A stretch of 64,000 nt of DNA from Anaerolineales bacterium (GTDB lineage Bacteria; Chloroflexota; Anaerolineae; Anaerolineales; Villigracilaceae), in NCBI GenBank assembly GCA_014379595.1, contig JACMLM010000011.1, positions 29,062 through 93,061 on the forward strand, written 5' to 3'. A program made the position numbers and the translations under genes. Below are positions 4,948 to 64,000 of this stretch, one piece after another (the first letter of the stretch is position 1; the number at the start of each line of letters is the position of its first letter). Below the pieces are notes generated by a model. That model saw only the letters and a list, made by a program, of their open reading frames with translations, made no database searches and was not told the DNA's origin.

Positions 4948-5032
4948 AGATTTATTAATCATTTGGTTTTATCCTAAATAAGAAAAATCCCGCAGACTGC
5001 CATCAAAAACTTTACTACCCTGCAATTACGGT

Positions 5033-6937: not shown

Positions 6938-6965
6938 GAACTGAACGGCGTGCGCTTAACCTGCG

Positions 6966-7841: not shown

Positions 7842-7843
7842 AT

Positions 7844-8674: not shown

Positions 8675-8677
8675 TTT

Positions 8678-9838: not shown

Positions 9839-9849
9839 AATTTCACCTC

Positions 9850-10902: not shown

Positions 10903-10929
10903 GAATTTACCTCGGGTATTGTATTTTTT

Positions 10930-12692: not shown

Positions 12693-12732
12693 GCCACAAA
12701 TCAGAAAATCTTATTGAATGAACCCAATACTC

Positions 12733-16182: not shown

Positions 16183-16243
16183 GGGTCACATCCTTTTTTA
16201 ATTTGTTAATGCGAGGAGCGATCTCCGCAACAATGACGATCCT

Positions 16244-17362
16244 CTACTCAACCAATGATTTCTTGATCTTTCTTCTTTGCTGCGGTTTCTTTTTCAATAA
16301 AAGTTTTGCAGCAAATTCTCGGCCTTCTTGTGCCAGCTTCCGTCCTTCTTTAAGAAATGGGTTATCAGCAAAACGATTTTCCTGTGGCAAGCGCAGAAAT
16401 TTCTTGATCGTGTAAAACTGGTCACCGCGATAGATCATATGCTGTACACGCAATTTGCCTGCTAATTCTTTGATCTGTTCGACGGGAAACATCTCCAAGC
16501 CTGAGTGTGTCACTTTCAAAGATGCAGCTGCAATCGCAAAGCAGACAGATTCTTCCATGCTCCAGCCTTTGAGGTAACCATAAATAAATCCGGATGAAAA
16601 AGTTGCACCCGCACCAGAGCCATCCACTGCTTTCACTTTAGGTGCATAGACCCGTACGATCTTTTCACCATCCACTACCAAACATCCTTGACTTGCCATG
16701 GTAATGATCGCAGTCTTGATACCAGCTTTAAATAGTTTTTTAGCAACAGAAAGCATAGCACGTTTTTTACCGATCTGCGCAGCATCTGTCACTGCCTGAC
16801 AAATCGTAGCGCGGCTTGCATATTTTGCCAATACATCAGAGTCTTTATGCCCATGCTCCAAATTAAGAAACACGGGTACATTTTGTTTTTTTGCTTCATC
16901 CATTGCACGAATAATATGATCACCGTCATACCAATCCACATAAAGAAGTTTTGACTTTTTAATGAGCGACAGATCAGCCGTATCGAGTGTGCTTAATATC
17001 TCAGGTGAACGCTGCCAGAAATATGTGCGTGCTCCTGTTTTATCAGATACATTCACTTCGATGGGCGTTCTATATTTTTTGGTAAAGCGCACCTTACCTT
17101 GCACGCCCCAATCCTTTAATCTCTTAGCTACATCATGACCAAGTAAATCATCACCAACCGATGTGCCGATCATCGCAGTGGGCACATCCCATTGACGAAG
17201 CGCACAGGCAATGATGGCAGCATCGTCATATATAAATTCGCTCACCTGATGAACAATTGCGCCCGTATTATGTCTCGGAAGTTTATCCAACGCCATAATA
17301 TAGACGGGAGTCAACATACCGAAACCTACATAAGCTGGAGTTGGTGTTTTGGAATTAGGCAC
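16244..17362 (-). CDS. PfkB-family carbohydrate/ribokinase-fold kinase with a basic C-terminal extension
   Basis: Ribokinase-like fold signature near the C-terminal third (VDGSGAGATFSSGFIYG). 8-nt overlap with the upstream gene. About 60 extra Lys/Arg-rich C-terminal residues. Confidence 0.65.
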   Translation of the reverse strand: MPNSKTPTPAYVGFGMLTPVYIMALDKLPRHNTGAIVHQVSEFIYDDAAIIACALRQWDVPTAMIGTSVGDDLLGHDVAKRLKDWGVQGKVRFTKKYRTPIEVNVSDKTGARTYFWQRSPEILSTLDTADLSLIKKSKLLYVDWYDGDHIIRAMDEAKKQNVPVFLNLEHGHKDSDVLAKYASRATICQAVTDAAQIGKKRAMLSVAKKLFKAGIKTAIITMASQGCLVVDGEKIVRVYAPKVKAVDGSGAGATFSSGFIYGYLKGWSMEESVCFAIAAASLKVTHSGLEMFPVEQIKELAGKLRVQHMIYRGDQFYTIKKFLRLPQENRFADNPFLKEGRKLAQEGREFAAKLLLKKKPQQRRKIKKSLVE

Positions 17363-19784: not shown

Positions 19785-19818
19785 TTAAAATACCTGTTTC
19801 ATCATTAATTAATATCTA

Positions 19819-20241
19819 CTAATTGTCTACTTTTATTTCAATCAATCGAACTGATTCGTTCATCGGGAAACGACTAAAATCAAAATCTATAACATATGTA
19901 AATAGGTTGCCATCCATGGAATATTCCCCCATCCAATCAGTTACATCTTGAGAAATTAAATTCCCGCGAACTTCGAACCTATAAGCTGCATAGCGGTACA
20001 CGCCATTTGGCGCTTCTTTATACTCTGTTGTCATACCTGCAGGAACATCACCAAAAGAAATACTATCGCTAGGAAATCTAACAACAAGATTAGTAATTGT
20101 GGTGGAGCCATTATTAATAATTCTCAAGAGGGCTGTCTTAGATACTTGAGTAGGTGTTATTTGAGCGGATTGTGAAGCACATCCACTTAAAATAAAAGAT
20201 AAAAATAAAGAACAAAATAGTTTATTAATTACTTTTTTCAT
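19819..20241 (-). CDS. Hypothetical lipoprotein
   Basis: Signal peptide with lipobox LSGC-A. ATGA overlap with the DeoR gene stop. No family recognised. Confidence 0.55.
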   Translation of the reverse strand: MKKVINKLFCSLFLSFILSGCASQSAQITPTQVSKTALLRIINNGSTTITNLVVRFPSDSISFGDVPAGMTTEYKEAPNGVYRYAAYRFEVRGNLISQDVTDWMGEYSMDGNLFTYVIDFDFSRFPMNESVRLIEIKVDN

Positions 20242-21014
20242 TTCGCAACCAAAACTTCCACATCATATTCCCCAATTTCTCTTTTCGCTTGCTTACTCAA
20301 TCCATTATCAGTGACCAATTTATTAATCTCATCAATCTCAGCTACGGGAAAGTTAGACACTGCGCCCCATTTGCTATGGTCAGCGACAACAATTACCTGA
20401 CCTTTTGTCCGTTCAATCATTCTTCGTACAACTTCTGCTTCGGGATTCGTTGGAACCGTACAACCATGTTTTAATGAGATTCCGTCTACGCCAAGAATCG
20501 CTTTGTTGGCAAAGACCAAGCCTAAATTGTCAAAAGCGAAGCGACCTGCCAAAGAGTTTGAACGACTCTGAAATTCGCCTCCAATCAAATGTAATTTAAA
20601 AACTGGTTCCGCAATATCAGTCAACACACTCATGTTGTTTGTATAAACCGTAATGCGCGGGTTCGGTGGAATATTTTTCAAAACTTGTGCGGCAGTAGAA
20701 CCACTGTTGACAAAAATAATATCACCTTCCTCAATCAGAGAAGCCGCAAGTTCACCGATAATTTTTTTCTCGTTTGGAAAGTTTTTGATGCGTTGTTGAA
20801 ATTCTTGATCAAACATCACACGTTGATTTAATATCGCCCCCCCGTGCGTTCTTTCCAAAATTCCTTTTTGCTCCAACCATTCCAAATCACGTCGTACTGT
20901 CGCTTCAGAAGTATCCAGCACATCCATTAAATCTACTGTACGCGCAATCTGATGGATCCCCAAATATTCTTGTATTTTTTCGCGACGTTGGGCTGGAATG
21001 AGGGGTTTTCCCAT
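20238..21014 (-). CDS. DeoR/GlpR family transcriptional regulator
   Basis: N-terminal wHTH (RREKIQEYL...SEATVRRDLEWLEQKG) plus a C-terminal sugar-phosphate-binding DeoR_C domain. The track start at 21050 is possible, but Met-13 (21014) fits family length. Confidence 0.8.
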   Translation of the reverse strand: MGKPLIPAQRREKIQEYLGIHQIARTVDLMDVLDTSEATVRRDLEWLEQKGILERTHGGAILNQRVMFDQEFQQRIKNFPNEKKIIGELAASLIEEGDIIFVNSGSTAAQVLKNIPPNPRITVYTNNMSVLTDIAEPVFKLHLIGGEFQSRSNSLAGRFAFDNLGLVFANKAILGVDGISLKHGCTVPTNPEAEVVRRMIERTKGQVIVVADHSKWGAVSNFPVAEIDEINKLVTDNGLSKQAKREIGEYDVEVLVAK

Positions 21015-21067
21015 GTGAAGGATTATATAAGTATTTGAAGGAATTTGCAAGTTTTTGACATTTTGCT

Positions 21068-21073
21068 TATAAT
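21068..21073 (+). promoter_or_regulatory. Candidate -10 box of a leaderless transcript for the CBS gene
   Basis: TATAAT lies exactly 6 nt before the ATG at 21080, and there is no SD. The same geometry occurs at 35093. Confidence 0.3.
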
Positions 21074-21079
21074 GGCGTT

Positions 21080-21889
21080 ATGCCAAAAATTGTAAAAGAT
21101 CTAATGCACCCAGGCGTAATGACCTGCAAGCCAACAGCTACTTTGGGACAAGTGGCTGTCTTGCTTAACCAGCACAAAATCCACGCTTTGTTTGTAACCG
21201 ATCGTGATGGTCGTATTATAGGTGTCATTTCAGATTTTGACTTAATGGCTGGCGAATGGCTCTCCTCGGACTCTGAAAGCTTAACCACCATGCGAAAATT
21301 AACAGCTGCGGATCTTATGTCGCAGCCAGTTGATTCTATTGAAACAAACATTTCCCTTGCTGACGCAGTAGACCTTTTCATTGAAAAAAAGGTAAGCCGC
21401 TTGCTAGTCACTGAAAATGAAAAGCCTGTGGGCATCCTTTCGCTTTCAGATTTTATTGCCAGTATCGCAAGTGAAATCAAATCAAAACGTGACACGGTCG
21501 GAGATGTAATGTCTGATGCCATTTTAGTTTGTCGTGGCAAAACTTCTGTTTCGTCTGCCGCACGTGCAATGACATCTGCTGGCTGGCGTTCAGTGTTAGT
21601 AGTGGATGCAAAAGGAAAAATTCTTGGCGTGGTCAGTGGGCATGACTTGCTTCAATTTGTAAAAGAAGGCGTTGGAGAAAAACTAATTGTCCGCGATGTG
21701 ATGCACCCTGCTTTGACAATTGACATCAATGCCAGCTTACGAGAAGCCGCAGATATGATGATTAAGAATCATTATCACCGACTCGTTGTCGTTGATAAAA
21801 ACGATCCAGATGCATTTCCTCTAGGTGCAATCTCTACATTTGACATTGTTGCAGAAATGTCAAAACCAGATTCGGTTTGGCAGAAGTAA
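21080..21889 (+). CDS. CBS domain-containing protein (four CBS repeats, two Bateman modules)
   Basis: Four repeats of the CBS pattern (VMT..ATLGQVAVLL..H..HALFV.D..GR.IGVIS..DL). No other domain. Confidence 0.8.
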   Translation: MPKIVKDLMHPGVMTCKPTATLGQVAVLLNQHKIHALFVTDRDGRIIGVISDFDLMAGEWLSSDSESLTTMRKLTAADLMSQPVDSIETNISLADAVDLFIEKKVSRLLVTENEKPVGILSLSDFIASIASEIKSKRDTVGDVMSDAILVCRGKTSVSSAARAMTSAGWRSVLVVDAKGKILGVVSGHDLLQFVKEGVGEKLIVRDVMHPALTIDINASLREAADMMIKNHYHRLVVVDKNDPDAFPLGAISTFDIVAEMSKPDSVWQK

Positions 21890-21977
21890 ACCTTTACAAC
21901 GAAGGACACAAAGGTTCACAAAGGTTTTAAATTCTTTTCCTTCGTGTACCTTAGTGACCCTTTGTGGTTAAAAAATT
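21890..21977. repeat. Palindromic intergenic element built from CACNAAGG / CCTTNGTG units, copy 1
   Basis: ACGAAGGACACAAAGGTTCACAAAGG....TCCTTCGTGTACCTTAGTGACCCTTTGTGG. Starts immediately after the CBS gene stop. Related to 27807..27900. Confidence 0.7.
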
Positions 21978-21992
21978 CAGGAGCAAAGATTC

Positions 21993-24425
21993 ATGTCAGA
22001 TTTTCCAACACAGGCGCAAGTCGTCATCATCGGTGGAGGTGTAGGCGGATGCAGTATTGCTTATCATCTAACAAAATTAGGTTGGAAAGATGTTGTCATC
22101 GTTGAGAAGCACGAATTGACATCAGGCTCTACCTGGCATTCCGCTGGGCTCGTTGGTCAGATGCGTTCAGATGCGAATTTGACTCGTATGATGCACTACA
22201 GCACAGACTTATACCGAAGTCTCAAAGCTGAAACAGGACAAGATACTTCATGGCGTGAAGTTGGCGGAATTCGTTTGGCATGTTCAGCAGAAAGAATGGA
22301 AGAAACAAAAAGATTAGTGGGGATGGCTCGTTCTTTCGGTGTGCCGATGGAGTTGATCTCGCCAAAGGAAGCACAGGATATGTTTCCAATCATGTCTTTA
22401 GATGGCGTGCTTGGTGCAGCGTACACACCCAACGATGGAAGCATTGACCCTACTGGCTTGACCAATGCACTTGCTATCGGGGCAAAGAGTCGCGGGGCAA
22501 AGATATTTACAAATACTCTTGTCGAAAAAATAAATTTAAAAGATGGTCGTGTCCATGAAGTAGTGACGGATAAAGGGACGATCAAGACTGAGATCGTGGT
22601 CAATGCCTCAGGTATGTGGGGACGCGAAACAGGAAAAATGGTCGGGTTGAATCTACCAGTGATCCCAATGGCTCATCTTTATATTATGACCAAGCCTATC
22701 GAAGGTGTGACGAATAAATTCCCAAATCTGCGCGACCCTGATCTATTAGTTTATTGGCGTGAAGAAGTTGGCGGGTTTATTACAGGTGGCTATGAACGTC
22801 AGCCCGCAACTTTTGGGATGAACGGTATTCCAAAAGATTTTAAATTTCAACTGCTACCTCCAGATTGGGAACGCTTTACCCCATTGATGGAAAATTCTAT
22901 TCGACGCGTGCCTGCGATTGAAAATGCTGAAGTCAAAATGTTATTGAACGGCCCAGAAGGCTTCACACCCGATGGTGAATTTTTATTAGGGCCAACCACT
23001 GTCAAAGGGTTTTGGGTAGCGTGTGCCTTCTGTGCCCATGGACTTGCTGGCGCAGGCGGCATGGGCAAAGTAATGGCAGAGTGGATCGTAGATGGAAGCC
23101 CTGAATGGGATATGTGGCGACTCGATGTGCGCCGCTTTGGTCCGAACTACAACAGCCTGGAATATGCCACGGCGCGGACGTTTGAAACTTATACACAATA
23201 TTATGACATTCATTATCCTGGCGAAGAAAGAATGTCGAAGCGCAATGTTCGTACCTCGCCCACTTTTTATCGTCTGCGTGATTTGGGTTGTACATTCGGT
23301 GAAAAGATGGGATGGGAACGCCCGAACTGGTTTAGAAAATATGAAGAGCTTGCTACACATGGTCATGAGCCAAGAGGCTGGTCGCGCCATAATTGGTCTC
23401 GCGCCATTGGACATGAACATTTGATGACCCGCGAGAATGCAGGCCTCTTCGATGAAACATCATTTAATAAGTTTGAAGTGCGTGGAACTGGCGCTTTGAA
23501 TTTCCTGAATCATGTTTGTGCCAATGAAATGGATCAACCCATTGGCTCGATGACATATACACAATGTCTCAACAAACGTGGCGGCATCGAATGTGATTTC
23601 ACAGTTAATCGCCTTGCAGAGAATCGTTTCTTCATTGTTACTGGAACTGCGTTTGGTCAACACGATATGTCGTGGCTGTCATTGAACATGCCTGAAGATG
23701 GCACAGTGACCATCGAAGACGTCAGCTCTAATTATGCCTGTCTCGGCATGTGGGGACCAAAAGCACGCACCATCCTCGAAAAAGTAACTATGGATGATGT
23801 CTCGAATGATGGCTTTCCATATATGACTTCAAAGCGAATGAACGTGGGTGACGTACCAGTGCTCTCTTCGCGCGTGACTTATGTTGGCGAGTTGGGCTGG
23901 GAGTTTTACTGCCCAATGGAATACGGCTTGCGACTCTGGGATACGCTTTGGGAAGCGGGTCAATCGGAAGGCCTGGTAGCGGGCGGTTACAAAGCCATTG
24001 ATACTTTACGCATCGAGAAGGGTTATCGTTATTGGAGCGGCGAGATTTCCCCAGACTACACTCCTTATGAAGCAGGTCTTGGATTCGCAGTCAAATTGAA
24101 TAAAGAAGCTTTTATTGGCAAAGATGCTTTAGTGAAACAAAAAGCAGAAGGCATTAATAATAAACTTTGCACAATTACTTTAAATGATGACCGCACCATT
24201 GTGATTGGAAAAGAGCCTATCCGCGTTGGCGATCAACTCGTGGGTTGGGTGGCTTCGGGTGGATTTGGTTACTCGGTCAACAAGTCTATCGCTTACGCAT
24301 ATCTCCCAATGGAATATGCAAAGGTTGGCACAAAACTAGAAGTTGAATGTTTTGGTGAACAGGTTGGTGCTGAAGTTGTGCAGGCAGTATTATGGGATGC
24401 CAAAGGTGAGAGAATTCGTCAGTAA
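21993..24425 (+). CDS. FAD-dependent oxidoreductase fused to a GcvT-type aminomethyltransferase domain (dimethylglycine/sarcosine dehydrogenase family), copy 2
   Basis: VVIIGGGVGGCSIAYHL..VVIVEK. 810 aa. C-terminal TYVGELGWEFY. Paralog of 17355..19784. Confidence 0.85.
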   Translation: MSDFPTQAQVVIIGGGVGGCSIAYHLTKLGWKDVVIVEKHELTSGSTWHSAGLVGQMRSDANLTRMMHYSTDLYRSLKAETGQDTSWREVGGIRLACSAERMEETKRLVGMARSFGVPMELISPKEAQDMFPIMSLDGVLGAAYTPNDGSIDPTGLTNALAIGAKSRGAKIFTNTLVEKINLKDGRVHEVVTDKGTIKTEIVVNASGMWGRETGKMVGLNLPVIPMAHLYIMTKPIEGVTNKFPNLRDPDLLVYWREEVGGFITGGYERQPATFGMNGIPKDFKFQLLPPDWERFTPLMENSIRRVPAIENAEVKMLLNGPEGFTPDGEFLLGPTTVKGFWVACAFCAHGLAGAGGMGKVMAEWIVDGSPEWDMWRLDVRRFGPNYNSLEYATARTFETYTQYYDIHYPGEERMSKRNVRTSPTFYRLRDLGCTFGEKMGWERPNWFRKYEELATHGHEPRGWSRHNWSRAIGHEHLMTRENAGLFDETSFNKFEVRGTGALNFLNHVCANEMDQPIGSMTYTQCLNKRGGIECDFTVNRLAENRFFIVTGTAFGQHDMSWLSLNMPEDGTVTIEDVSSNYACLGMWGPKARTILEKVTMDDVSNDGFPYMTSKRMNVGDVPVLSSRVTYVGELGWEFYCPMEYGLRLWDTLWEAGQSEGLVAGGYKAIDTLRIEKGYRYWSGEISPDYTPYEAGLGFAVKLNKEAFIGKDALVKQKAEGINNKLCTITLNDDRTIVIGKEPIRVGDQLVGWVASGGFGYSVNKSIAYAYLPMEYAKVGTKLEVECFGEQVGAEVVQAVLWDAKGERIRQ

Positions 24426-53987: not shown

Positions 53988-55124
53988 TTATTCCTTTGGT
54001 TTATAAATTGCTTGCTCTTCGCGCACTGCGACATAATTCATGCCACCCACCTGGCGCACCATGCCTTTCAGTTCCATTAGCGCGAGTGTAGCAGAAACTT
54101 TCTCAATCGGCAAATCAGTTTGATTGCGAATTTCATCCACATGCAATGGCTCACCGCCAAGCACATTTAATAATCGCGCTTCTGTTTCATCGGCAGGTAT
54201 TATTTTACGCGCAGATTTATGTTCACCGATACGGGTAAAATCCAACGCCTGCATGAGATCGCTGACATTCAATAATGGCTGCGCACCATTTTGGATCAAT
54301 TTATTTGTCCCTTTACTTTGCGGCGCAAGTATACTCCCTGGCACTGCAAATATTTCTCGGCCTTGTACAGCTGCAAATTCTGCCGTGATCAATGCACCGC
54401 TGGTTTCACCTGCTTCAACCACAACGACCGCCAATGATAAACCAGAAATAATGCGATTGCGCGGCGGAAAATTGGAAGCATCTGGCGGCGTGCCAGGTGC
54501 ATAATCACTGATGATCGCGCCTCGTTCCATCATTTGTTCAGCCAGCTTCAAATGCTCGGGTGGATAAATTTTATCCACGCCGCTTCCGAGAATACCTATT
54601 GTTCTACCGCCAGCTTTCAGCGCAGTTTGATGAGCGATTGCATCCACGCCGCGCGCCAAACCACTGATGACCGTGATTCCATTGGATGCAAGGAACGATG
54701 AAATCTCTTCTGTGATCTGCCTGCCATACGGCGTCACGCGACGCGTGCCAACAATCGAAACAGCAAACAAGTCATCGGGCAGATACTCGCCGCGAATATA
54801 CATCACTGGCGGCGGTTGGTCAATCTCTTTTAATCTTGATGGATACGCTTCATCCTGCCACGTCAGGATTTTTATCCCTTGCGATTCGATCTTCGCCCAC
54901 ACTTGATCGAGATCAACTGTTTGACGCGCCGCGAGGACTCGTTCGATCACTTTAGCGCCCAAGCCTGCTTCTGATAAAGCGGCAGAATCAGCACCCCAAG
55001 CGGATTCGAGGTCGCCGAAATATGCGACCAGTCCCTGCATACGCACGGCGCCGATGCCTTTAATTAAATTGAAGCCAACCCAATATTTTTTATCGTCCAT
55101 AGTGTTGTTTGGGGATTGTATCAC
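53988..55124 (-). CDS. dprA: DNA-processing protein DprA (Smf)
   Basis: SAM-like N-terminus, Rossmann core (VSGLARGVDAIAHQ..GGRTIGILGSGVD..YP) and a C-terminal wHTH. Confidence 0.88.
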   Translation of the reverse strand: MIQSPNNTMDDKKYWVGFNLIKGIGAVRMQGLVAYFGDLESAWGADSAALSEAGLGAKVIERVLAARQTVDLDQVWAKIESQGIKILTWQDEAYPSRLKEIDQPPPVMYIRGEYLPDDLFAVSIVGTRRVTPYGRQITEEISSFLASNGITVISGLARGVDAIAHQTALKAGGRTIGILGSGVDKIYPPEHLKLAEQMMERGAIISDYAPGTPPDASNFPPRNRIISGLSLAVVVVEAGETSGALITAEFAAVQGREIFAVPGSILAPQSKGTNKLIQNGAQPLLNVSDLMQALDFTRIGEHKSARKIIPADETEARLLNVLGGEPLHVDEIRNQTDLPIEKVSATLALMELKGMVRQVGGMNYVAVREEQAIYKPKE

Positions 55125-55149
55125 TCACCCATCGATCCCCTATCATAAT

Positions 55150-55704
55150 TTACGAATCTTTATTCTCGATCAAACCGTCAAGCAAGTGAACTTTCATAGT
55201 ACGCTGATCCATATCCACGTTAAGAATGACCGATGGTATAGCAGGCAGAAGAATCTCTTTCCCAGATTCATTCCGAACGATATAAACATCATTCGCGCCT
55301 GTTTCTAAAATTTCAACCAACTTGCCCAGCGGATTCCCGTTATCGTCCACGACATCCAGATCAATTAATTCATATTGATAATGTTTGCCTTCGGGAAGCG
55401 GCGGGACTTCTGAGGCTTTGACATATACCCATTGATTGCGAAATCTGCCTGCATCTTCAGGCGTATCCACGCCATGCAAACTGACAAGCAATCCTTGATT
55501 ATGCTGACGAACGGTATCCAGCGTAAGTGGTTGATGTTTCTCGCCGATCAAAACGTTGCGTCCAGACTTGATACGATCAGGAAAATCGGTGTGCATATCC
55601 ATGATGATCTCACCGCGCACACCATGAGGACGGCGCAGATAACCAATTACTAAATAGACAGGCTCGCCTGACGGCGAGCCTGATGAATTCTGTTTCGTGG
55701 GCAT
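55150..55704 (-). CDS. rimM: 16S rRNA processing protein RimM
   Basis: IGYLRRPHGVRGE..., a PRC barrel C-terminus, and the conserved position after rpsP and the KH gene. Confidence 0.88.
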   Translation of the reverse strand: MPTKQNSSGSPSGEPVYLVIGYLRRPHGVRGEIIMDMHTDFPDRIKSGRNVLIGEKHQPLTLDTVRQHNQGLLVSLHGVDTPEDAGRFRNQWVYVKASEVPPLPEGKHYQYELIDLDVVDDNGNPLGKLVEILETGANDVYIVRNESGKEILLPAIPSVILNVDMDQRTMKVHLLDGLIENKDS

Positions 55705-55937
55705 TAGGGTTCCGTTACATCCAGCGTGGCTTGTTTACCTTCTCGGTCCGCAGCCACTCGCAGCAATGCGCGAATGGAGTTTGCTACCTTCCCGCCTTTG
55801 CCGATCACGCGTCCCATGTCGTCTTTGGATACACTGAGTTCAATCCGCACACGTGAGCCGCTTCCGCTTTGGCTTACTTGTACTTCTTCAGGATGTTCAA
55901 CAAGGGATTTGGCTATAAATTCAATAAGTTCTTTCAT
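55704..55937 (-). CDS. KH domain-containing RNA-binding protein (YlqC/UPF0109-like)
   Basis: 77 aa with GRVIGKGGKVANSIRALL. Conserved position between rpsP and rimM. Confidence 0.88.
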   Translation of the reverse strand: MKELIEFIAKSLVEHPEEVQVSQSGSGSRVRIELSVSKDDMGRVIGKGGKVANSIRALLRVAADREGKQATLDVTEP

Positions 55938-55956
55938 ATTATTGCCTACTTATTTA

Positions 55957-55997
55957 CGTCATTGCGAGGGCGGTAGAACACCGCCCTCACAATGACG
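55957..55997. repeat. Palindromic element of the GTCATTGCGAGG family (intercistronic, rpsP-KH)
   Basis: CGTCATTGCGAGGGCGG-tagaaca-CCGCCCTCACAATGACG: 16 of 17 arm positions pair. Confidence 0.75.
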
Positions 55998-56004
55998 ATG
56001 CTGG

Positions 56005-56349
56005 TTAATTGCTCGTAGTTCTCTTTGGTGCGGCACGTTTGGTTTCGGCTTCAGCGGCTTCGGCTACAAGAGCCTCAACAGCTTCGCCTTTTTTGAAGCG
56101 GTCAAAACGAGCTTGCGTACCAGAGGCCTTGAAGATCTGCGCCACTGATTCGGTCGGCAAAGCGCCATTCTTCATCCAGTGGAATACGCGGTCTTCTTTA
56201 ATATGAATGGTGGCGGGGTTGGTACGTGGATTATACACACCCAAGATTTCCAAAAAGCGGCCATCGCGGGGGGCTTCCTTATCCGCAGCGATGATGCGGT
56301 ACGTGGGTTGGCCTTTAAGACCAATACGACGTAAACGAATTCTTACCAT
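56005..56349 (-). CDS. rpsP: 30S ribosomal protein S16 (with an Ala/Lys-rich C-terminal extension)
   Basis: MVRIRLRRIGLKGQPTYRIIAADKEAPRDGRFLEILGVYNP is the canonical S16 N-terminus. Confidence 0.93.
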   Translation of the reverse strand: MVRIRLRRIGLKGQPTYRIIAADKEAPRDGRFLEILGVYNPRTNPATIHIKEDRVFHWMKNGALPTESVAQIFKASGTQARFDRFKKGEAVEALVAEAAEAETKRAAPKRTTSN

Positions 56350-56624
56350 TTTTACTTACTCCTATAGAATGTTTTGCGCTTCAGACAGGCAAGAGAGAGT
56401 TTTGTGTGCAAGGGACACACGCCTTGCGGGCTGAAATCACAGGGGAGTATTTTACCAGAGAAAAAGGCGGAATTGCCGTTTCGGGGTTTGCAGACGGTAT
56501 ATATAATGGAATATATAAAGGTCTTATACAGTCAAATCGCTGTATAAACCATAGTTAGGTGGCTAAAAATGTACACTAACTTTGGAATTACTGTAAAATT
56601 GGGGGAAACGAAAGGACGGGTGTT

Positions 56625-57458
56625 ATGGGATTTTTGGACTATTACAAATTATACTGGAATACATTCGCCAAAAACTGGAAATCGAATCTCGATTGGCGTG
56701 GATATGGGGTCGAATTATTGTCGGCAGTTATTTCTGGCGGTTTATTTATTCGGGGAAATGGATGGAAAGCCGTGTTAGATAATCCAAGAGACTTCTTATT
56801 GAGTACGCTTGCATTTCCAATTGCATTGGCGGTGCTTTACTCTCTTTATCACCTTCTGGTAACACCCGCAAATTTATATATCGACAAGCAAAAACTAGCA
56901 TGGAGGCGGACTTGGAGGGATGTTGAAATTGCGCCTATCAATTTCTCAGACGACGAATGGTTTGGTGTAGGGTTATCCATTGTTAGTGACAAATCAGATG
57001 AGTATAATGTAACCAACTTTTATCCAAAAATAATAAAAATAACTCGTGGTAATGATGTAATATATCAATCAAATATTCCTGATGTTGGGATTGAACTGAG
57101 AGTTATTGAGCGAACAATAGAAACAGGTTCTTTTTATCGTCGCACAAATGCTCTTCATGTTCCTCACCGTAAAAACATAGGCGAATCTACTGTAGCCTTT
57201 CATGTTGCTAAGTTTCGCGATGACACTGCATATCCAAATTTTGTTGAGATTGAAGGCATTATAGAAGCAGAGGATAGTCAGCCACAGAATTATGTCGAAC
57301 ACGTAACTTTGCCATGCAAGATCGAAATTGCTTTGCGTGGTTTATTGAATTCCTTAGATAAAATGGATATATGTCAAATCGTGTGTGAAATACGCGAGAA
57401 CGAAGAAAAAGGTTTATCAATCACTATGAGAAGAATTCCAGAATATGAGTACGCATAA
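56625..57458 (+). CDS. Hypothetical membrane protein (orphan)
   Basis: 277 aa with two N-terminal TM segments. AT-rich coding sequence. No family recognised. Confidence 0.45.
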   Translation: MGFLDYYKLYWNTFAKNWKSNLDWRGYGVELLSAVISGGLFIRGNGWKAVLDNPRDFLLSTLAFPIALAVLYSLYHLLVTPANLYIDKQKLAWRRTWRDVEIAPINFSDDEWFGVGLSIVSDKSDEYNVTNFYPKIIKITRGNDVIYQSNIPDVGIELRVIERTIETGSFYRRTNALHVPHRKNIGESTVAFHVAKFRDDTAYPNFVEIEGIIEAEDSQPQNYVEHVTLPCKIEIALRGLLNSLDKMDICQIVCEIRENEEKGLSITMRRIPEYEYA

Positions 57459-57638
57459 ACCCGCCACCTAACACCACGTGCGCCTGACTTATGGGAGTCT
57501 GCGCAACTTCCAAGCATTTTTTGTGACTTCGAGTTCATACTGCTCCCAAGCAAAGTCCACGCCCGCACACCTGTCATGTTTCGCAAACACAAACTCTAAA
57601 GACAAATACAGCAAACTATTAATCGTTATGGAGAAGAC

Positions 57639-58007
57639 ATGAGTTTAGCGATCAATAAGATTTTGATCTACGCGAAGGACATGCAAAGAACGTCTGAGTT
57701 TTACGAACGGCATTTCGGTTTCAACTCCAAAGCAGATGATGATGGGAGAATCATTGAGCTAACTTCCGCCAGTGGAGGCGCCAATTTACTAATTCATCAG
57801 GCAGGAAAAGGAGTCAAGTTAGGTCAAGTTGGCATAAAGCTAGTTTTCGATGTGAAAGATGTCGAAGCATATAAGAAAAAGTGCGCAAAGTTAGGTCTTA
57901 AGTTTGGAAGTACGCATCAGGCAGAGGGTTACTCATATGCAAATGCAAAAGACCCAGACAAAAATTCTATTTCTATTTCCAGCCGCGCTTTTCGAAAAAG
58001 CGCATAA
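57639..58007 (+). CDS. VOC (glyoxalase/bleomycin-resistance/dioxygenase) family protein
   Basis: 122 aa. The N-terminal pattern ILIYAKDMQRTSEFYERHFGF is typical of the VOC fold. Confidence 0.65.
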   Translation: MSLAINKILIYAKDMQRTSEFYERHFGFNSKADDDGRIIELTSASGGANLLIHQAGKGVKLGQVGIKLVFDVKDVEAYKKKCAKLGLKFGSTHQAEGYSYANAKDPDKNSISISSRAFRKSA

Positions 58008-58024
58008 TAGCTTCGCCCAAGAGG

Positions 58025-58112
58025 ATGCGTCGCACCTGACTTAATGAGAAAATGCGAATCGAGTAGATTTTGCTGATTAATCAGAAGAATCCACCCGTCA
58101 GGTGCGACGCAT
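58025..58112. repeat. MITE-like element with 16-bp perfect terminal inverted repeats, copy B
   Basis: ATGCGTCGCACCTGAC ... CGAGTAGATT ... CTGATTAATCAG ... GTCAGGTGCGACGCAT. Related to 39381..39470. Confidence 0.75.
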
Positions 58113-58119
58113 TATCTAC

Positions 58120-59175
58120 TCACCCCGAAATCTCTTTCTTCACCACTGGTGCGACCTTTGTCCCAAGCAATTCAATCGCTCGCATCATTTTTGCATGTGG
58201 GATTGTGCCAATGCCGAGTTGAATTAAAAATCTTTGATGATTAAATATCTTGTGCTGGAATAAAATCTTTTCGATCACTTCATCGGGGTTGCCAACAAAG
58301 TCTGAGCCGCGCAGGGTGCGGGAGTTTTCAAATTGTTGACGGGTCATCCCAGACCAGCCACGCTCGCGCCCGATCTTGTTCATCATCATCTGAAGGGATG
58401 GAAAATAATCATCTGCGGCTTGTTGCGAGTCGTCGCCAATAAATCCATGTGAATTAATACTTACTGCCAGTTGCGAGGGGTCATGCCCAGCCTGGGCAGC
58501 GGCCCGATAGTACAGCTCAACAAGAGGCGCGAAGCTTTCGGGCATCCCGCCAATAATGGCAATCGCCAGTGGCAGTCCCAAAGTCCCAGCTCGCATGACA
58601 GATTCGGGCGTCCCACCCACTGCGATCCAAACTGGAATCTTTTGTTGATACGGACGAGGATAAATTCCCTGCTCAAATAATGCAGGGCGATGTTTGCCAG
58701 CAGACCAGGTCACAATCTCGGATTCGCGCAGTTTCAAAAGCAAGTCAAGTTTTTCGGTGAATAATTCGTTGTAGTTATTCAGGTCATATCCAAATAAAGG
58801 AAACGATTCAATGAAGGAACCGCGTCCTGCCATGATTTCTGCACGGCCTTTGGAAAGCAAATCCAACGTGGCAAAATCTTGAAAGACTCGCACAGGGTCA
58901 TCTGAACTCAAAACAGTGACGGCAGTGCTCAAACGAATATTTTTTGTCCGCGCTGCTGCTGCAGCCAAAATAGTCACAGGCGATGATGAAATAAAATCAG
59001 GGCGGTGATGCTCGCCGAGGCCAAAGAGATCCAAACCAACCTGGTCGGCCAGCTCAATGGTCTCCATCAGATTGCTCATTCTTTCAACGGGACTGAGCAT
59101 CGTCCCCGTGATTGGGTCAGCAGTCAACTCCACGAAGGAATAGATGCCAATTTCAAAAGGTTTTTTATCTGTCAT
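58120..59175 (-). CDS. LLM-class (luciferase-like) flavin-dependent oxidoreductase
   Basis: 351 aa TIM-barrel LLM pattern (FGLGEHH..., [22 protein letters not shown]). Confidence 0.75.
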
Positions 59176-59287
59176 GTAAGTTTCCTCTTTTATTTATGTG
59201 TTTTATAAGACGCTGCATTCATCAAAAAACCTACAAGGAAAGAATGTTATATATAATAGATGAATAAATCAACTGACGGAGAATTAC

Positions 59288-59767
59288 ATGCCCAGCCATA
59301 TACAAGGTTCTATTCTATTGAGAGATGTAACCGAAGCTGACCTGCCAATATTCTACGAACAGCAACTGGACCCTGATGCGACTCAAATGGCTGCCTTCCC
59401 ATCCAGAGATCGGGATGCATTCATGGTACATTGGAATAACAAAGTGCTGCCGAACCCAGATGGCATCGTGAAAACCATACTCTTCAATGGTCAGGTTGCT
59501 GGAAACATTGTCAGTTGGGATCAATCAGGTGAAAGAGAAGTCGGTTATTGGATCGGGAAGGAATATTGGGGTAAAGGGATTGCGACAAAGGCGCTGACAG
59601 AGTTTTTAGGTTATGTGAAGACACGTCCGCTGTGGGCGCATGTTGCAAAGCATAATATTGGGTCTCAACGTGTGCTGCAAAAATGCGGGTTCAAAATTTC
59701 AAGCCAGGATAAATTTTCTGATGAAAAAGTTGGGGAGATCGAAGAGTTTATTTTGAAGCTGGAATAA
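59288..59767 (+). CDS. GNAT family N-acetyltransferase
   Basis: Acetyl-CoA binding motif YWGKGIATKALTEFLGY. 159 aa. Confidence 0.75.
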   Translation: MPSHIQGSILLRDVTEADLPIFYEQQLDPDATQMAAFPSRDRDAFMVHWNNKVLPNPDGIVKTILFNGQVAGNIVSWDQSGEREVGYWIGKEYWGKGIATKALTEFLGYVKTRPLWAHVAKHNIGSQRVLQKCGFKISSQDKFSDEKVGEIEEFILKLE

Positions 59768-59975
59768 AAAGGGAGAAAGAGCTGGAATTGATTGAAAAGA
59801 AAAACTAAAAAACTATCGCAAGAAGTATATAAGTCTTAGAAAAGAGAAGTGCAGTGTTTGAATCAATAAATAGACGCCAACTAGCAGGTGAATATCATTT
59901 CATTTTACGATACGTGGAAGTGGAATTGCTAAACCACTAAAGAATCTGATAGCCATCCAAAGGAAATAATGAATC

Positions 59976-60458
59976 ATGTCACATTCTTTTCGGTCTTCCA
60001 ATCGTATCGTTAGCAGAATCTTGATTTGTGTAATTATTTTGATTGCATATGTTTTATTTCTTGTAATGTCTTCCTACAAGTTCTCGACCAATCCAGCTAA
60101 TGAGACCATTCCAACCGTTTCCTACTGCGAGCTAGTTCATACCCCAGAACGTTATGACCAAGTAATAGTACGCGTCCATGCGACCTACGTTGTCGGCTTT
60201 GAGTGGTCGTATTTGATGGATCGCAATTGTACTGAACAAACCTGGACGTTATTCATTTCGGAGGATAAAACTTGTTCAGTTAACTTACCAAGACCATTAT
60301 TTCCACCCAAACGAAATGGCGGAAGATGGAAGGTCTCAGTTGTCGGTCAATTTTTTAGTGAACGTGGAAATTATGGGCACCTGGGGTACTATCCATTTGA
60401 GTTCAATGTTGTCTGCATCGAATCGGCTAGTTTATTCATTCCCTGGAATTGGCCATAA
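59976..60458 (+). CDS. Hypothetical membrane-anchored protein (orphan)
   Basis: 160 aa with an N-terminal TM helix. No family recognised. Confidence 0.4.
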   Translation: MSHSFRSSNRIVSRILICVIILIAYVLFLVMSSYKFSTNPANETIPTVSYCELVHTPERYDQVIVRVHATYVVGFEWSYLMDRNCTEQTWTLFISEDKTCSVNLPRPLFPPKRNGGRWKVSVVGQFFSERGNYGHLGYYPFEFNVVCIESASLFIPWNWP

Positions 60459-60570
60459 TACAGCGTATAAAATTATAGACGCCTAGTCATTTTCTAAACA
60501 TCACTGATGCTGAAAAGGCTCAATCAATAAAATAAAAATGTCGATAGCACAACAGTGACCAGCATCTCAT

Positions 60571-60678
60571 CTACCCAAACAATTTTCCCAATCCTTTGCC
60601 CCCAGTTTTTTGAAACATCTTCATCATCTTTTGTGCTTCACGAAATTGTTTGATCAGGCGATTCACATCTTGTACGAT
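60571..60678 (-). pseudogene. Detached second copy of the ffh 3' end (last 34 codons plus stop)
   Basis: Reads VQDVNRLIKQFREAQKMMKMFQKTGGKGLGKLFG-TAG versus the resident ...GMGKLFG-TAA. Hand count: 8 synonymous and 1 non-synonymous differences. Confidence 0.85.
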
Positions 60679-60692
60679 CTCGATAGCTAAGG

Positions 60693-61733
60693 TTAGTCTT
60701 TAAATTTTGCTCTGATTCTCTGAATCGGCTTGTCAATTAATACAATCAGCAAATAAGAGAGCATGAAGACAACAATTATTGAGAGCAAAAAACTTTCCAC
60801 GCCACGCCTTGACAATGTATGTATGGGCTTGCCAAAAAGAGAAAAAGACACCAATAAGCCAACCTGCCAATGCGATAAATAAATCGGGTAGGAAAAATCG
60901 CCGATAAACTTATCAATCTTCTCACTCAATTTCAGAATTTGGTCACCTGTTACGATTTTGTAAACTAAAAGAGAGCCAATAATAAGATTTGTATAAAAAG
61001 CCAATTCGTGAAAGATGTAGAAATCAGGGAGGTAGTAATATAGTCCGAGACCTAATATGCAATTAGCAACCAACAAAACAAATAACCAGCGAGCGGAAAG
61101 TTTTATTCTAGAAAAGGATTTACTTATTACTCCTTTCTTTGAATAAAAATAAATCCATGCACCAATCGAAAAAGGTAATGATCCAGCCAGTATCGGGGAA
61201 TATCTACTGTCATCGTCCAGCCCAAGAGCATAAGTAATAGCAATATATATCAATGATGCAAAAAACCAAAAGCGAACACGATTTAATGTCTTGGAGATTC
61301 CGAGGCAAATCAAGAAATAAAAAAATAATTCCACGGTCAACGCCCAGGCTGGTGGAACGAATCGTGGAAAAACAGTAATCGGATTCCACGACGCGAACAC
61401 GAGGGAAATATTTTGAAGAAGTTCAGCAGGAGAATTTGGCAGATACAAGCTGGGATTATAGTTTCGAGTGATATCTTCGCCGATATAAAGAATTAGCAAA
61501 GCTGTAAAACCTATAATAAGCCAGTATATAGGGTAAAGTCGCAATACCCTGTTAATAGCAAAATAATATCGCCCTCTCCAGCTATATCCATATGTTTCGT
61601 GCATGATCAAGGTCATCAAATACCCACTGATAACGTAAAAACAAAATACAGCATATTGTCCGAGGGGCGCTAAGTTTAAAAGATGTTGGCACATCACAAG
61701 CATGGCCAACACAGTCCTTAGAATTCCAAACAT
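60693..61733 (-). CDS. Acyltransferase family 3 (O-acyltransferase) membrane protein
   Basis: About 10 TM segments. The N-terminal conserved His region (LAMLVMCQHL) is typical of acyltransferase_3. Confidence 0.7.
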   Translation of the reverse strand: MFGILRTVLAMLVMCQHLLNLAPLGQYAVFCFYVISGYLMTLIMHETYGYSWRGRYYFAINRVLRLYPIYWLIIGFTALLILYIGEDITRNYNPSLYLPNSPAELLQNISLVFASWNPITVFPRFVPPAWALTVELFFYFLICLGISKTLNRVRFWFFASLIYIAITYALGLDDDSRYSPILAGSLPFSIGAWIYFYSKKGVISKSFSRIKLSARWLFVLLVANCILGLGLYYYLPDFYIFHELAFYTNLIIGSLLVYKIVTGDQILKLSEKIDKFIGDFSYPIYLSHWQVGLLVSFSLFGKPIHTLSRRGVESFLLSIIVVFMLSYLLIVLIDKPIQRIRAKFKD

Positions 61734-61776
61734 AAATTATCCCAAGCCTTCTTGTATGGAAATATATGTTACATAA

Positions 61777-63117
61777 TTACCCAAACAATTTTCCCATTCC
61801 TTTGCCTCCAGTTTTCTGGAACATCTTCATCATCTTTTGTGCTTCACGAAATTGCTTAATAAGGCGATTCACATCCTGCACATCCATACCCGAACCAGCC
61901 GCAATACGGCGGCGACGGGATGCGTTTAATAAATCAGGGTCGCGGCGTTCTTTTAATGTCATTGAATTGATAATCGCTTCAGATTGCTGAAATGACTTTT
62001 CTACAACGGTTGGATCGATACCGCGTGCAGCTTGTCCCATTTGACCTGGGAGCATGTCCATAATTTGCGCAAGCGGACCCATCTTTTTCATTTGCTTCAT
62101 TTGGTCAAGCCAATCCTCCAAAGAGAAATGACCCTTCATCATTTTCTCGGCTTGTCGCGCCTGCCGCGCCTGCGCGTCCATATCCTGGTCGCCATAAGCG
62201 GCTTCGGCCTTTTCGATCAGGCCGATCATATCGCCCATGCCCAAAATACGAGACGACAAACGCGATGGATCATATGTTTCAAGCGCGTCGAGTTTTTCGC
62301 CAGTACCAATAAATTTAATTGGAATACCAGTCACCGAGCGAATGGAAATTGCCGCACCACCACGCGAGTCGCCATCCATTTTTGTGAGGATGAGTCCTGT
62401 GATATTAATCGCATCACGAAAACCTTGTGCGATGTTCAATGCTTCCTGACCGATCATAGAGTCAACGACGAGCAAAATGTCTATTGGATTGACATTTGCA
62501 GCGATAGCTTTTAACTCAGCCATCAGATCCGCATCCATTTGTGACCGACCCGCTGTATCCACGATGACCAAGCCGAATCCACCCTTTTCAGCTTTATCTA
62601 CCGCGCGTTTTGCAAGCTGCGGCGGAGTCAACGATGTATCAGTTTCAACTTCAACATCTAAACGTTCGCCAAGTTGCTGCAATTGTTTTATAGCAGCGGG
62701 ACGGTATGGGTCACCTGCCACAAGCAGAACACGCTCCCCTTTTGACTTCATCAATCGCGCAAGTTTGCCTGAGGCTGTTGTTTTACCAGCGCCTTGCAAA
62801 CCAACCATCATAATCACACGCGGTTTTGGGCCTGTAAGATTTAATGCAACAGGTTCACCAAGTGATGCAACCAATTCTTCATTGACGATCTTGATCACTT
62901 GTTGACCAGGGTTCAGTGCCTTCGATACTTCTGCACCAATCGCACGTTCACGAACCTTTGCAATGAAAGTTTTAACAACACTAAAATGCACATCGGCTTC
63001 GAGAAGCGCGAGGCGCACTTCTCGCATGGCGGCATCCACGTCCGCTTCGGAGAGTTTGCCGCGGCGGCGAAGTCCGTCAAAAATTTGATTAAGTCGTCCA
63101 GTGAGGGTTTCAAACAT
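61777..63117 (-). CDS. ffh: Signal recognition particle protein Ffh
   Basis: MFETLTGRL N-terminus, NG domain GLQGAGKTT, DTAGR, and a Met-rich M domain. Confidence 0.95.
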   Translation of the reverse strand: MFETLTGRLNQIFDGLRRRGKLSEADVDAAMREVRLALLEADVHFSVVKTFIAKVRERAIGAEVSKALNPGQQVIKIVNEELVASLGEPVALNLTGPKPRVIMMVGLQGAGKTTASGKLARLMKSKGERVLLVAGDPYRPAAIKQLQQLGERLDVEVETDTSLTPPQLAKRAVDKAEKGGFGLVIVDTAGRSQMDADLMAELKAIAANVNPIDILLVVDSMIGQEALNIAQGFRDAINITGLILTKMDGDSRGGAAISIRSVTGIPIKFIGTGEKLDALETYDPSRLSSRILGMGDMIGLIEKAEAAYGDQDMDAQARQARQAEKMMKGHFSLEDWLDQMKQMKKMGPLAQIMDMLPGQMGQAARGIDPTVVEKSFQQSEAIINSMTLKERRDPDLLNASRRRRIAAGSGMDVQDVNRLIKQFREAQKMMKMFQKTGGKGMGKLFG

Positions 63118-63291
63118 GAGTTAAAGTCTCCAGAGTAGAGAGAACATTTTAGCGTGTAGCAGGTTGAGGGTCAAGTAAGAGGCGATGCCTAAGTCCACAT
63201 CCCGTTAAACATTTCTTTACAATGAAGGCGAAACTACTTATACTCGCATGTGTTGTCTTTCTAACAATCAATCTTGGTTTGCGGAGGATAT

Positions 63292-64000
63292 ATGTCAACA
63301 GAAGCAGCAGTGGTGAATGACAGAAAAGAGATTTTCGGCTGGGGCATGTATGACTGGGCGAACTCAGCCTTTAGCACAACGGTGGGAACAGTATTTCTTG
63401 GGCCATATATCGCAAGCCTTGCGAGGACAGCGGCCGAAGCGGCAGGCACAACAACTGTTTCATTTTTAGGAATTCCAATTGCACCTGATTCATTTTTGCC
63501 ATATTGCATTTCATTTTCAGTGGGCATGCAGGTTTTATTTCTGCCCATCCTTGGCGCAATTGCAGATTTTTCAAATTTGCGAAAACGCATGATGCAGATT
63601 TTTGCGACCATTGGCGCAATTGCCACAATTTTGATGTTCCTGCTGACAGGCGATTTATGGTGGCTTGGCGGTGTGTTATTCATTGTTGCGAACCTTTGTT
63701 TCGGTGCGGCCATTGTTTTTTACAATGCTTATCTGCCCGATATTGCAAGCGAAGATCAAAGAGACCGCGTCTCTTCGTATGGCTGGGCAATGGGATATTT
63801 AGGCGGCGGTATTTTACTAGCGTTGAATCTAGCATTTTTTATTTTTAGTGAAGACATTGGTGTGCCGAGCGATCTTGCTGTGCGAATCAACCTCGCATCA
63901 GCTGGTATTTGGTGGCTTGGGTTTGCATTCATTACATGGTCAAGATTGCGGACGCGGAAAGCCTCACGCGCTTTACCTGCCGGTGAGAATTATGCGACTA
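63292..64000 (+). CDS. MFS transporter, UMF1 (Atg22-like) family, 3' end beyond window
   Basis: Not in the ORF track because no stop is reached. My translation from the ATG at 63292 (GGAGG 4 nt upstream) is open to nt 64000: MSTEAAVVNDRKEIFGWGMYDWANSAFSTTVGTVFLGPYIASL.... The YDWANSAF motif is the UMF1 family signature, and several TM segments follow. Confidence 0.75.
   Translation, partial: MSTEAAVVNDRKEIFGWGMYDWANSAFSTTVGTVFLGPYIASLARTAAEAAGTTTVSFLGIPIAPDSFLPYCISFSVGMQVLFLPILGAIADFSNLRKRMMQIFATIGAIATILMFLLTGDLWWLGGVLFIVANLCFGAAIVFYNAYLPDIASEDQRDRVSSYGWAMGYLGGGILLALNLAFFIFSEDIGVPSDLAVRINLASAGIWWLGFAFITWSRLRTRKASRALPAGENYAT

Follow-up and report, generated by a model that had tools for sequence, protein, structure and literature searches.

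A second copy of the ffh gene end flanks an O-acyltransferase gene at the ffh-rpsP junction of an Anaerolineales bacterium

Organization of the ffh locus

The window analysed here is a stretch of 64,000 nucleotides (nt) from an Anaerolineales bacterium (Chloroflexota; Villigracilaceae), positions 29,062 to 93,061 of contig JACMLM010000011.1 in assembly GCA_014379595.1. Its minus strand carries an intact ffh gene (61777-63117), whose 446-residue product is the SRP54 homologue of the signal recognition particle (SRP) and has the Pfam domains SRP54_N, SRP54 and SRP_SPB. The gene is followed by a 43-nt spacer (61734-61776, -), by a gene for a 346-residue OafA/YrhL-like O-acyltransferase of the Acyl_transf_3 family (60693-61733, -; PF01757, E 4.5e-21) and by a second, detached copy of the ffh 3' end. 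We call tail A the final 34 codons and TAA stop of the functional ffh (61777-61881, -), and tail B the detached codons 413 to 446 (Val413-Gly446) with their TAG stop (60571-60675, -; nhmmer E 1.1e-24). The 17 nt between the acyltransferase stop and tail B (60676-60692, -) hold the joint. An earlier note on this DNA had described this arrangement on the minus strand, and the open reading frames (ORFs), domains, repeat search and in-register alignment confirm it. Its coordinates are right overall, except that tail B was begun at 60678, which takes in one non-matching codon and makes the spacer 14 instead of 17 nt long.

A repeat search of the window finds the tail pair as direct repeats of 104 nt, 91% identical, with a spacing of 1206, and alignment in register gives 10 differences over 105 nt (90.5% identity). 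Eight are synonymous third-position changes, one is ATG/TTG (Met/Leu) and the last is TAA versus TAG. The similarity has abrupt edges at the Val413 codon and directly past the stop. A block of 35 nt in tail B (60614-60648, -) is identical to 61820-61854 in tail A, and a further 14-nt stretch is shared without change (61862-61875 and 60656-60669). The count of differences, the sharp edge at the Val codon and the 35-nt block had all been given in the earlier note, and exact alignment reproduces them. The acyltransferase gene is the sole ORF of at least 60 codons between the tails, and tail B itself includes a GTG-initiated ORF of 31 codons (60571-60666). A profile built from 20 tail sequences detects no ffh-tail copy in the window beyond these two (nhmmer). 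There is no convincing terminator hairpin 3' of tail B (z = 0.9), and an Rfam search of positions 55000 to 64000 gives no match.

Divergence of the two tails

Counted by the Nei-Gojobori method, the tails have 8 synonymous differences over 19.2 sites (synonymous divergence, dS, 0.61) and 1 non-synonymous difference over 82.8 sites (dN 0.012), a ratio omega of 0.02. Nine random substitutions would include at least eight synonymous ones with P = 5e-6, or 6.5e-5 under a 4:1 transition bias. From this low omega and this P value it follows that tails A and B each diverged as part of a working ffh, under purifying selection. The earlier note had said that both tails evolved under selection in functional ffh genes, and the synonymous bias, which speaks against a decaying local duplicate, holds under exact alignment and dN/dS counting. 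Since tail B has not decayed, the event that displaced it would be recent relative to a dS of 0.6.

The two tails are equally far from every sampled relative, each differing at 14 to 28 of the 105 nt. At synonymous sites the proportion of differences (pS) is 0.42 between them and 0.64-0.89 between either and the relatives, and the central block of both has common AT-shifted codons found in no relative. The outgroup states at the 10 variable sites were compared with three histories of the tails, using ffh of the related loci L096 and L090 (the handles L001 and onwards designate loci of the comparison set). A switch of ancestry at tail nt 5-20 accounts for 9/10 sites with L096 and 7/10 with L090, no switch in the tail for 7/10 and 5/10, and a switch within the 35-nt block for 8/10 and 4/10. 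The proposal of the earlier note that this block is the crossover core is not supported, the switch near the 5' edge fitting slightly better, and the states are also compatible with a tail free of any crossover.

The structure is also found at read level. Logan unitigs of run SRR11670876 match the window exactly (L081 corresponds to 60619-61849 and L098 to 56149-60643), and each ends 30 nt into the 35-nt block, as predicted for k = 31. The joints from acyltransferase to tail B and from tail B to the downstream sequence are both present in these unitigs of an independent assembly, and the joint of the acyltransferase flank to the start of tail B is unique sequence, not within the identical block. 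For these reasons a strain-chimera assembly artefact is very unlikely as the source of the tails. The k = 31 unitig graph fits an integrated form and a circle plus empty site alike. Exact-protein look-ups with ffh, the acyltransferase and two ORFs further downstream (the 160-aa ORF and the GNAT gene described below) gave only SRR11670876 unitigs and no conspecific empty site.

The ffh-rpsP junction and the native context of tail B

The junction was compared among about 100 related ffh loci, part of them annotated. The usual Anaerolineales order is ffh, a gap of 100-290 nt, rpsP, rimM and dprA. In the window the gap between ffh and rpsP (56005-56349, -), its ancestral immediate neighbour 3' of ffh, extends over 5.4 kb. 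Beyond the acyltransferase gene and tail B it contains a 160-aa ORF without family match (59976-60458, +), which is absent from L096, then genes for a GNAT acetyltransferase (59288-59767, +), a luciferase-like monooxygenase (58120-59175, -) and a glyoxalase (57639-58007, +), and an ORF of 277 aa (56625-57458, +). The remainder of this islet past the GNAT gene spans 56350-59175 and includes the conserved rpsP promoter/leader, ttctctggtaaaata, at about 56447-56461. Much of the islet has a GC content of 0.36-0.43, versus about 0.47.

Relatives with an empty junction, which the earlier note had suggested looking for, do exist (L002, L010). Other junctions hold about 1 kb (L001, L004), a 4-5.6 kb insert with a two-component system (L006, L008), a toxin-antitoxin pair (L090) or a GNAT and a hydrolase gene (L096), so that inserts differ across the close clade (L001, L004, L006, L008, L083, L090, L096, L099). 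Relatives whose ffh is 91-96% identical are without the insert of the window; no conspecific genome is among them. These comparisons show that ffh next to rpsP is the ancestral order and that the junction is a hotspot of insertion in the clade.

The sequence downstream of tail B has a counterpart at L096/L097 (ffh 94% identical), where a GNAT gene on the opposite strand lies 38 nt past the ffh stop. Window positions 60675-60559 align to L096 11237-11353 at 82.9% identity (blastn), through the stop and a further 12 nt (60559-60570, -) that are homologous to the post-stop sequence of ffh in L096/L097. The window GNAT is the orthologue of the L096 gene (79% identity in amino acids, 83% in nucleotides; dS 0.75, versus 1.06 for ffh). 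Because tail B, its flank and GNAT match the L096 arrangement, tail B keeps its ancestral downstream context, and we read it as the displaced resident end of ffh. This agrees with the claim of the earlier note that one tail is a displaced native end. Comparing the tails with those of relatives, as it had advised, is informative through the downstream context; sequence distance is equal for both and does not point to the native tail.

Another Chloroflexota clade has a conserved ORF of about 560-710 aa that fills a ffh-rpsP gap of ~1.7-2.2 kb (L034, L039-L043, L045, L047, L049, L055, L063, L065, L071).

The acyltransferase gene as occupant of the slot behind ffh

OafA-like O-acyltransferases modify surface glycans, and their turnover is expected to be phage- or niche-driven. 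The activity of the protein encoded here is presumably acylation of a surface glycan; its homologues are named peptidoglycan/lipopolysaccharide (LPS) O-acetylase by JGI. The GC content of the gene is 0.36-0.39, versus about 0.47 in ffh. Its closest homologues with recovered flanks, seven in number and 56-84% identical, all occupy the slot directly behind ffh. Identities are 84% in L082, 76% in L106, 74% in L089, 66% in the L083 group, 66% in L100 and 58% in L099; L137 has 63% over the part seen, its contig beginning inside the gene so that ffh itself is unseen. A metagenome scan with an acyltransferase profile contributed no informative loci other than L106 and L137. In L099 the gene occupies the entire ffh-rpsP gap, and in L137 an orthologue of the luciferase-like monooxygenase lies between the acyltransferase gene and rpsP, with neither the 160-aa ORF nor GNAT. 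Remoter homologues, of 53% identity or less, come from other taxa and do not have ffh as a neighbour. Viral contigs have no ffh-tail block, and the acyltransferases found there are only 30% identical.

None of the seven homologue-bearing lineages has an intact second tail after the acyltransferase gene. No significant tail remnant is found behind it in L082, L089, L099 or L100, and L137 has a weak 14-nt match to the end of ffh before a hairpin (p about 0.01 or below in 200 shuffles). Acyltransferase and ffh identities run roughly parallel across lineages (84/93, 74/93, 66/90 and 58/85), and between the window and L082 dS is 0.64 for the acyltransferase and 1.0 for ffh. The nearest ffh relatives are without the gene (L090, 96%; L096, 94%; L001, 91%). 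By this distribution the gene is an old alternative occupant of the slot, gained, lost or exchanged among lineages, and no free cassette met with elsewhere in genomes. The small mobile cassette imagined in the earlier note does not agree with homologues that hold the same post-ffh slot in seven lineages, none with an intact second tail.

The flanks of the gene point to the same partners. The spacer after tail A has a motif (...ggcttgggataatttATG) homologous to ggattgggatagcttATG in L089, and this motif is common to the spacers ahead of the acyltransferase gene in L089 and L083, which supports the assignment of the spacer to the acyltransferase. The 17-nt stretch before tail B has weak similarity to the 3' flank of the L082 acyltransferase gene. 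Since no terminator-like site is found between ffh and the acyltransferase gene in the window and the corresponding spacers are short in several relatives (8-65 nt), the acyltransferase is probably transcribed from the ffh promoter.

In L106 (1597-1606) no more than 8 nt separate the stop of ffh from the start codon of the acyltransferase gene, which makes the pair an operon there.

Mosaic structure of ffh

The ffh protein of the window is 91-96% identical to those of Anaerolineales relatives and places the window among uncultured members of this order. A GTDB representative and Candidatus Villigracilis affinis each share 91% identity with it, and JGI contigs share 96%. Its gene is uneven in its affinities. 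Nucleotide identity to L082 goes from 95% (codons 51-100) down to 72% (codons 176-250); codons 51-125 are 93-95% identical to L082 with a dS of 0.27, and dS is 0.85-2 elsewhere. Codons 236-325 are nearest to L090 and L096, and codons 326-412 to the acyltransferase-bearing L082. The gene is therefore a recombination mosaic, a conserved gene with homologous exchange among relatives, and the shift of affinity in its 3' third, which a left crossover at about codon 325 would produce, is suggestive. A dprA gene lies three genes away (53988-55124); dprA alone is no proof of competence.

Displaced gene ends in other genomes and at pfpI

Two other ffh lineages have a displaced tail. The L083 group has the order ffh, acyltransferase gene, terminator, ORF for a ribbon-helix-helix protein and decayed ffh tail (about nt 21-105). 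The terminator behind the acyltransferase gene is the one found directly 3' of ffh in L001, and the displaced tail abuts the rpsP promoter motif ttctctggtaaaata exactly at the ffh-stop position of the empty-site locus L010. In L066, from Dehalococcoidia (5020-10213), an intact second ffh end of 75 codons (9986-10213; SRP_SPB E 1e-20) lies 3.7 kb 3' of ffh, past three cargo genes, none of them a recombinase gene. It has a dN/dS of about 0.07 relative to the resident end and adjoins rpoD, the gene beside which ffh lies in L080, L067 and L062. Every clear displaced tail has kept its ancestral neighbour, the cargo being placed between the tail and the functional gene. Where the joint falls differs between them, at tail nt 0 in the window, at about nt 21 in L083 and at least 75 codons from the end in L066, a comparison confounded by decay and by the different lineages.

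The displaced tail of L083 is split (11972-12140) by an insert of ~149 nt resembling a miniature inverted-repeat transposable element. The insert has perfect terminal inverted repeats of 11 nt (11986-11996 and 12116-12126) and a 10-nt target duplication, GGGGCTGGGA, on both sides. L066 and L067 were considered as near-identical genomes with swapped ffh; the idea was rejected, their rpoD genes being 99% identical in amino acids but only 85% in nucleotides.

In a self-search with gene C-termini, detached 3' ends are found in the window for two genes only, ffh and a DJ-1/PfpI gene (pfpI; 17-430, +). The end of the latter, 299-430, has two detached and decayed direct copies, and each terminates in a TAA of its own. 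The first, at 4826-4947, is 75% identical and has an in-frame stop inside; the second, at about 6981-7039, is 80% identical. An ABC transporter operon (520-4604, -) and a gene for a pyruvate-kinase (PK)-barrel protein (5033-6937, -) lie between these copies of the gene end. The earlier note had seen the same topology at this locus, and the detached copies bear it out; the pfpI arrangement is the same as that of ffh, in an older and decayed state.

Search for a recombinase

No integrase, resolvase or transposase domain is present in any major ORF of the 64 kb window, and no recombinase in the precomputed annotations of the L082, L083, L084, L090, L096 and L099 islets. Beside ffh no cognate integrative and conjugative element (ICE) or integrative and mobilizable element (IME) is seen in the about 100 loci compared, part of which are annotated. 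A pooled Pfam scan of 95 ORFs 3' of ffh in relatives, read as the best 25 of 108 families, is uninformative on single integrase matches. The insert has the direct repeats with the target 3' end that frame integrative elements, and no tyrosine or serine recombinase of its own beside a putative att site. Nor does it resemble an integron cassette, since there is no attC-type repeat, IntI or attI and no integrase in the window; the sole inverted repeat across the joint, of 21 nt with 76% complementarity and arms 55 nt apart, is itself part of conserved coding sequence. A transposon is likewise not apparent, with no transposase and with repeats of 105 nt that are 9.5% diverged in a coding-type pattern. 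A search of the literature gave no case in which ffh serves as an attachment site; the one it found is ffs, which encodes the SRP RNA. The earlier note had explained ffh and pfpI by a shared cassette mechanism with an integrase acting in trans. This explanation is opposed by the missing recombinase domain, in the window and in the annotated islets of relatives, and by two target genes and varied joint positions, which argue against one site-specific enzyme.

Origin of the arrangement

We favour the hypothesis that homology-facilitated illegitimate recombination (HFIR) anchored in ffh best explains the arrangement, with a probability of about 0.45, slightly short of even. The donor DNA would have come from a related lineage and carried the 3' part of ffh, its own final 34 codons (tail A) and the O-acyltransferase gene. 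This incoming linear DNA would pair with the resident chromosome through the conserved body of ffh, used as homologous anchor, and its far end would be without a homologous partner, since the genomes differ 3' of ffh. An illegitimate joint would then attach this far end to the resident strand at codon Val413, 17 nt past the acyltransferase stop. The resident tail B would be left unreplaced and pushed 1.2 kb downstream, still joined to its own flank and to GNAT. Such a route would need neither an integrase nor a circular intermediate, tail A being simply that of the donor and tail B that of the resident. We infer in this way both the direction of transfer and a mechanism that combines anchoring with an illegitimate joint. 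HFIR is favoured because no recombinase is seen, the joints vary, two unrelated targets are scarred within 64 kb, the anchor gene is mosaic and most acyltransferase-bearing genomes are without a second tail. The second tail would mostly be missing because an illegitimate joint is expected to fall usually beyond the stop.

Several points weigh against this hypothesis. Illegitimate joints are rare, yet they would have occurred in three ffh lineages and twice at pfpI, which is more regular than expected of random joining, and scoring the joint for microhomology would require the sequence of the donor. A recombinase may be encoded elsewhere in the genome, of which 64 kb was seen. Since the tails are closer to each other than to those of the relatives, the second allele must come from an unsampled close relative, or else gene conversion must have homogenised the centre. 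The shift of affinity seen in the 3' third of ffh, suggestive as it is, amounts to about 2 standard errors (estimated from pS values). Finally, the slightly better fit of a crossover near the 5' edge of the tail would correspond to the architecture of site-specific elements.

Site-specific integration, the model of the earlier note, is accordingly the first alternative to weigh, and we regard it as unlikely. The 1.2-kb segment would be a minimal or decayed element, like a cis-mobilizable element (CIME), with a surrogate ffh end in its attP and an integrase provided in trans. The attB would lie near Val413-Leu419, tail A would be largely element-derived and tail B the displaced native end. The cargo does lie between direct repeats whose limits, the Val codon on one side and the stop on the other, are sharp, and the surrogate and displaced tails are as in icd/icdC around e14 (PMC13626634) and in the definition of CIMEs (PMC5704250). 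The outgroup states fit a switch at tail nt 5-20, beside the 14-nt identical stretch, and the topology is repeated at pfpI, in L083 and in L066. Against this, no recombinase domain is found in the 64 kb window, the element included, or next to ffh in those close relatives that are annotated, and the joints range from nt 0 and about nt 21 to at least 75 codons. Besides, the seven related genomes with a post-ffh acyltransferase gene have no intact second tail, two unrelated target genes would require two specificities, and the ffh-tail block is in no phage or viral contig.

A RecA-dependent insertion of the Campbell type would dispense with the integrase. A circle with the ffh tail and the acyltransferase gene would enter by a single crossover in the 105-nt tail and leave hybrid tails; it could come from recombination between the tails of a donor that already had the structure. 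A single crossover of a circle leaves just such a duplication, the exchange may have taken place in the 35-nt identical block and the k = 31 graph (L081, L098) fits a circle plus empty site equally. We nevertheless hold this route to be improbable. Homologous recombination is poorly served by a tract of 105 nt at 90% identity, a crossover within the 35-nt block has the worst fit to the outgroup states (L090 4/10) and the intact unit of tail, acyltransferase gene and tail is in no other genome. The route also requires a pre-existing duplicated donor, whose origin it leaves unexplained.

The polarity could also be reversed, an option of the same low standing as the Campbell circle. Here ffh and the acyltransferase gene would be resident, and a fragment like that of L096, with tail B from Val413, the 160-aa ORF and GNAT, would have come in behind the acyltransferase gene. 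The rough parallel between acyltransferase and ffh identities, the presence of the gene behind ffh in seven other lineages, the gene order of L137 (acyltransferase, monooxygenase and rpsP, free of the 160-aa ORF and GNAT) and the lower dS of GNAT relative to L096 (0.75, below the 1.06 of ffh) all fit this polarity. It is opposed by the closest ffh relatives, L090, L096 and L001, which have no acyltransferase gene, and by tail B, whose lineage-specific AT-shifted codons are those of tail A and are not found in L096. Moreover, neither end of such an insert would have an obvious homologous anchor.

A local tandem or target-site duplication that diverged in place, possibly with gene conversion or selection on the 31-codon ORF, is a much weaker candidate. 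The two tails resemble one another more than either resembles any relative, their central 35 nt are identical and tail B includes the GTG-initiated 31-aa ORF. An unselected copy should however gain mostly non-synonymous changes, and 8/9 are synonymous (P about 5e-6); the duplication is in no relative and no transposase is present. We know of no transposase that makes a target-site duplication of 105 nt. Least credible of all is an assembly chimera of two co-existing strains, for which speak the metagenome source and a 35-nt repeat that breaks k = 31 graphs, since the joint lies in unique sequence present in the independent unitig L081 and a chimeric join would yield one hybrid tail, not two tails.

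Other features of the window

The ABC transporter operon next to pfpI (520-4604) has a paralogue at 9850-13878; both code for an SBP_bac_6 protein, two permeases and an ATPase with a TOBE_2 domain. The second operon adjoins genes for a class-V aminotransferase, a HAD hydrolase and a phosphodiesterase, and this cluster looks like one for the use of aminoethylphosphonate. The region 14746-24425 has a gene for an MttB-family methyltransferase (14746-16182) near paralogous genes for DAO+GCV_T oxidases (17355-19784 and 21993-24425) and a choline-kinase-like gene. Its gene content suggests that it is probably a catabolic cluster for methylated amines or glycine betaine. Within the 5' part of the solute-binding protein gene at 3405-4604, an 18-nt tandem repeat (4431-4529) is present in at least 4 copies that are 76-87% identical; it probably encodes a repetitive linker.

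Relation to known systems and significance

Among the closest known scars is that of e14 and phage 21 in the 3' end of Escherichia coli icd, where the element supplies a tail and the native fragment icdC is displaced (PMC13626634). As at ffh, the element sits within the 3' end of a conserved gene, the functional gene has a substitute tail and the native end is on the far side, and the two versions of the end differ mainly by synonymous or conservative changes (PMC13626634). Unlike the segment studied here, which has 1.2 kb, one metabolic gene and no recombinase found within 64 kb, e14 is a prophage of 15 kb that encodes its own integrase and is excised upon SOS induction. CIMEs and the accretion arrays of ICEs and IMEs at the 3' ends of streptococcal genes give another precedent, in which successive arrivals push older material away (PMC5704250). 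A CIME is however defined by a cognate ICE or IME integrase, and none is known at ffh, where the joints vary and conjugation genes are missing.

HFIR was proposed as a model for the displaced 3' ends in T6SS (type VI secretion system) and Rhs arrays of Vibrio cholerae (PMC5361080). In T6SS effector-immunity arrays and in the orphan arrays of Rhs and contact-dependent inhibition (CDI), as in the reading favoured here, an upstream anchor is conserved, a new module comes in and the former 3' end persists further downstream; the gene used as anchor is a mosaic, and no integrase takes part (PMC5361080). Those arrays carry toxin-immunity modules in which selection keeps the immunity genes, whereas ffh is a housekeeping anchor and its displaced piece has no evident function; the mechanism is deduced indirectly in both. 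Tycheposons, the tRNA-seeded islands of Prochlorococcus, also leave partial copies of the target through serial insertions at the same site (bioRxiv 10.1101/2020.12.28.424599). They resemble the ffh islet in the partial target-gene copies scattered in a small island of niche-adaptive cargo. They differ from it in their targets, which are tRNA and tmRNA genes, and in having tyrosine recombinases, replication genes and circles shown experimentally.

On present evidence the ffh tail duplication adds a further case to a kind of scar already known, for which ffh is a previously unreported target. It records gene gain in an uncultured Anaerolineales lineage as a scar that is dated and directional, and it marks the ffh-rpsP junction of Chloroflexota as a hotspot of repeated insertion. 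A wider idea, which we consider rather doubtful, is that Chloroflexota add genes by a general, integrase-independent "tail swap" at conserved, well-expressed genes such as ffh and pfpI. If true, promoter-less cargo would arrive linked to a substitute 3' end, and the target gene would provide both homology anchor and promoter. Each arrival would leave the former tail as a marker and possible secondary landing pad, and small ordered islets would form at defined housekeeping genes. The formation of islets without a dedicated integrase, if true, would be relevant to the diversification of bacteria that have few mobile elements.

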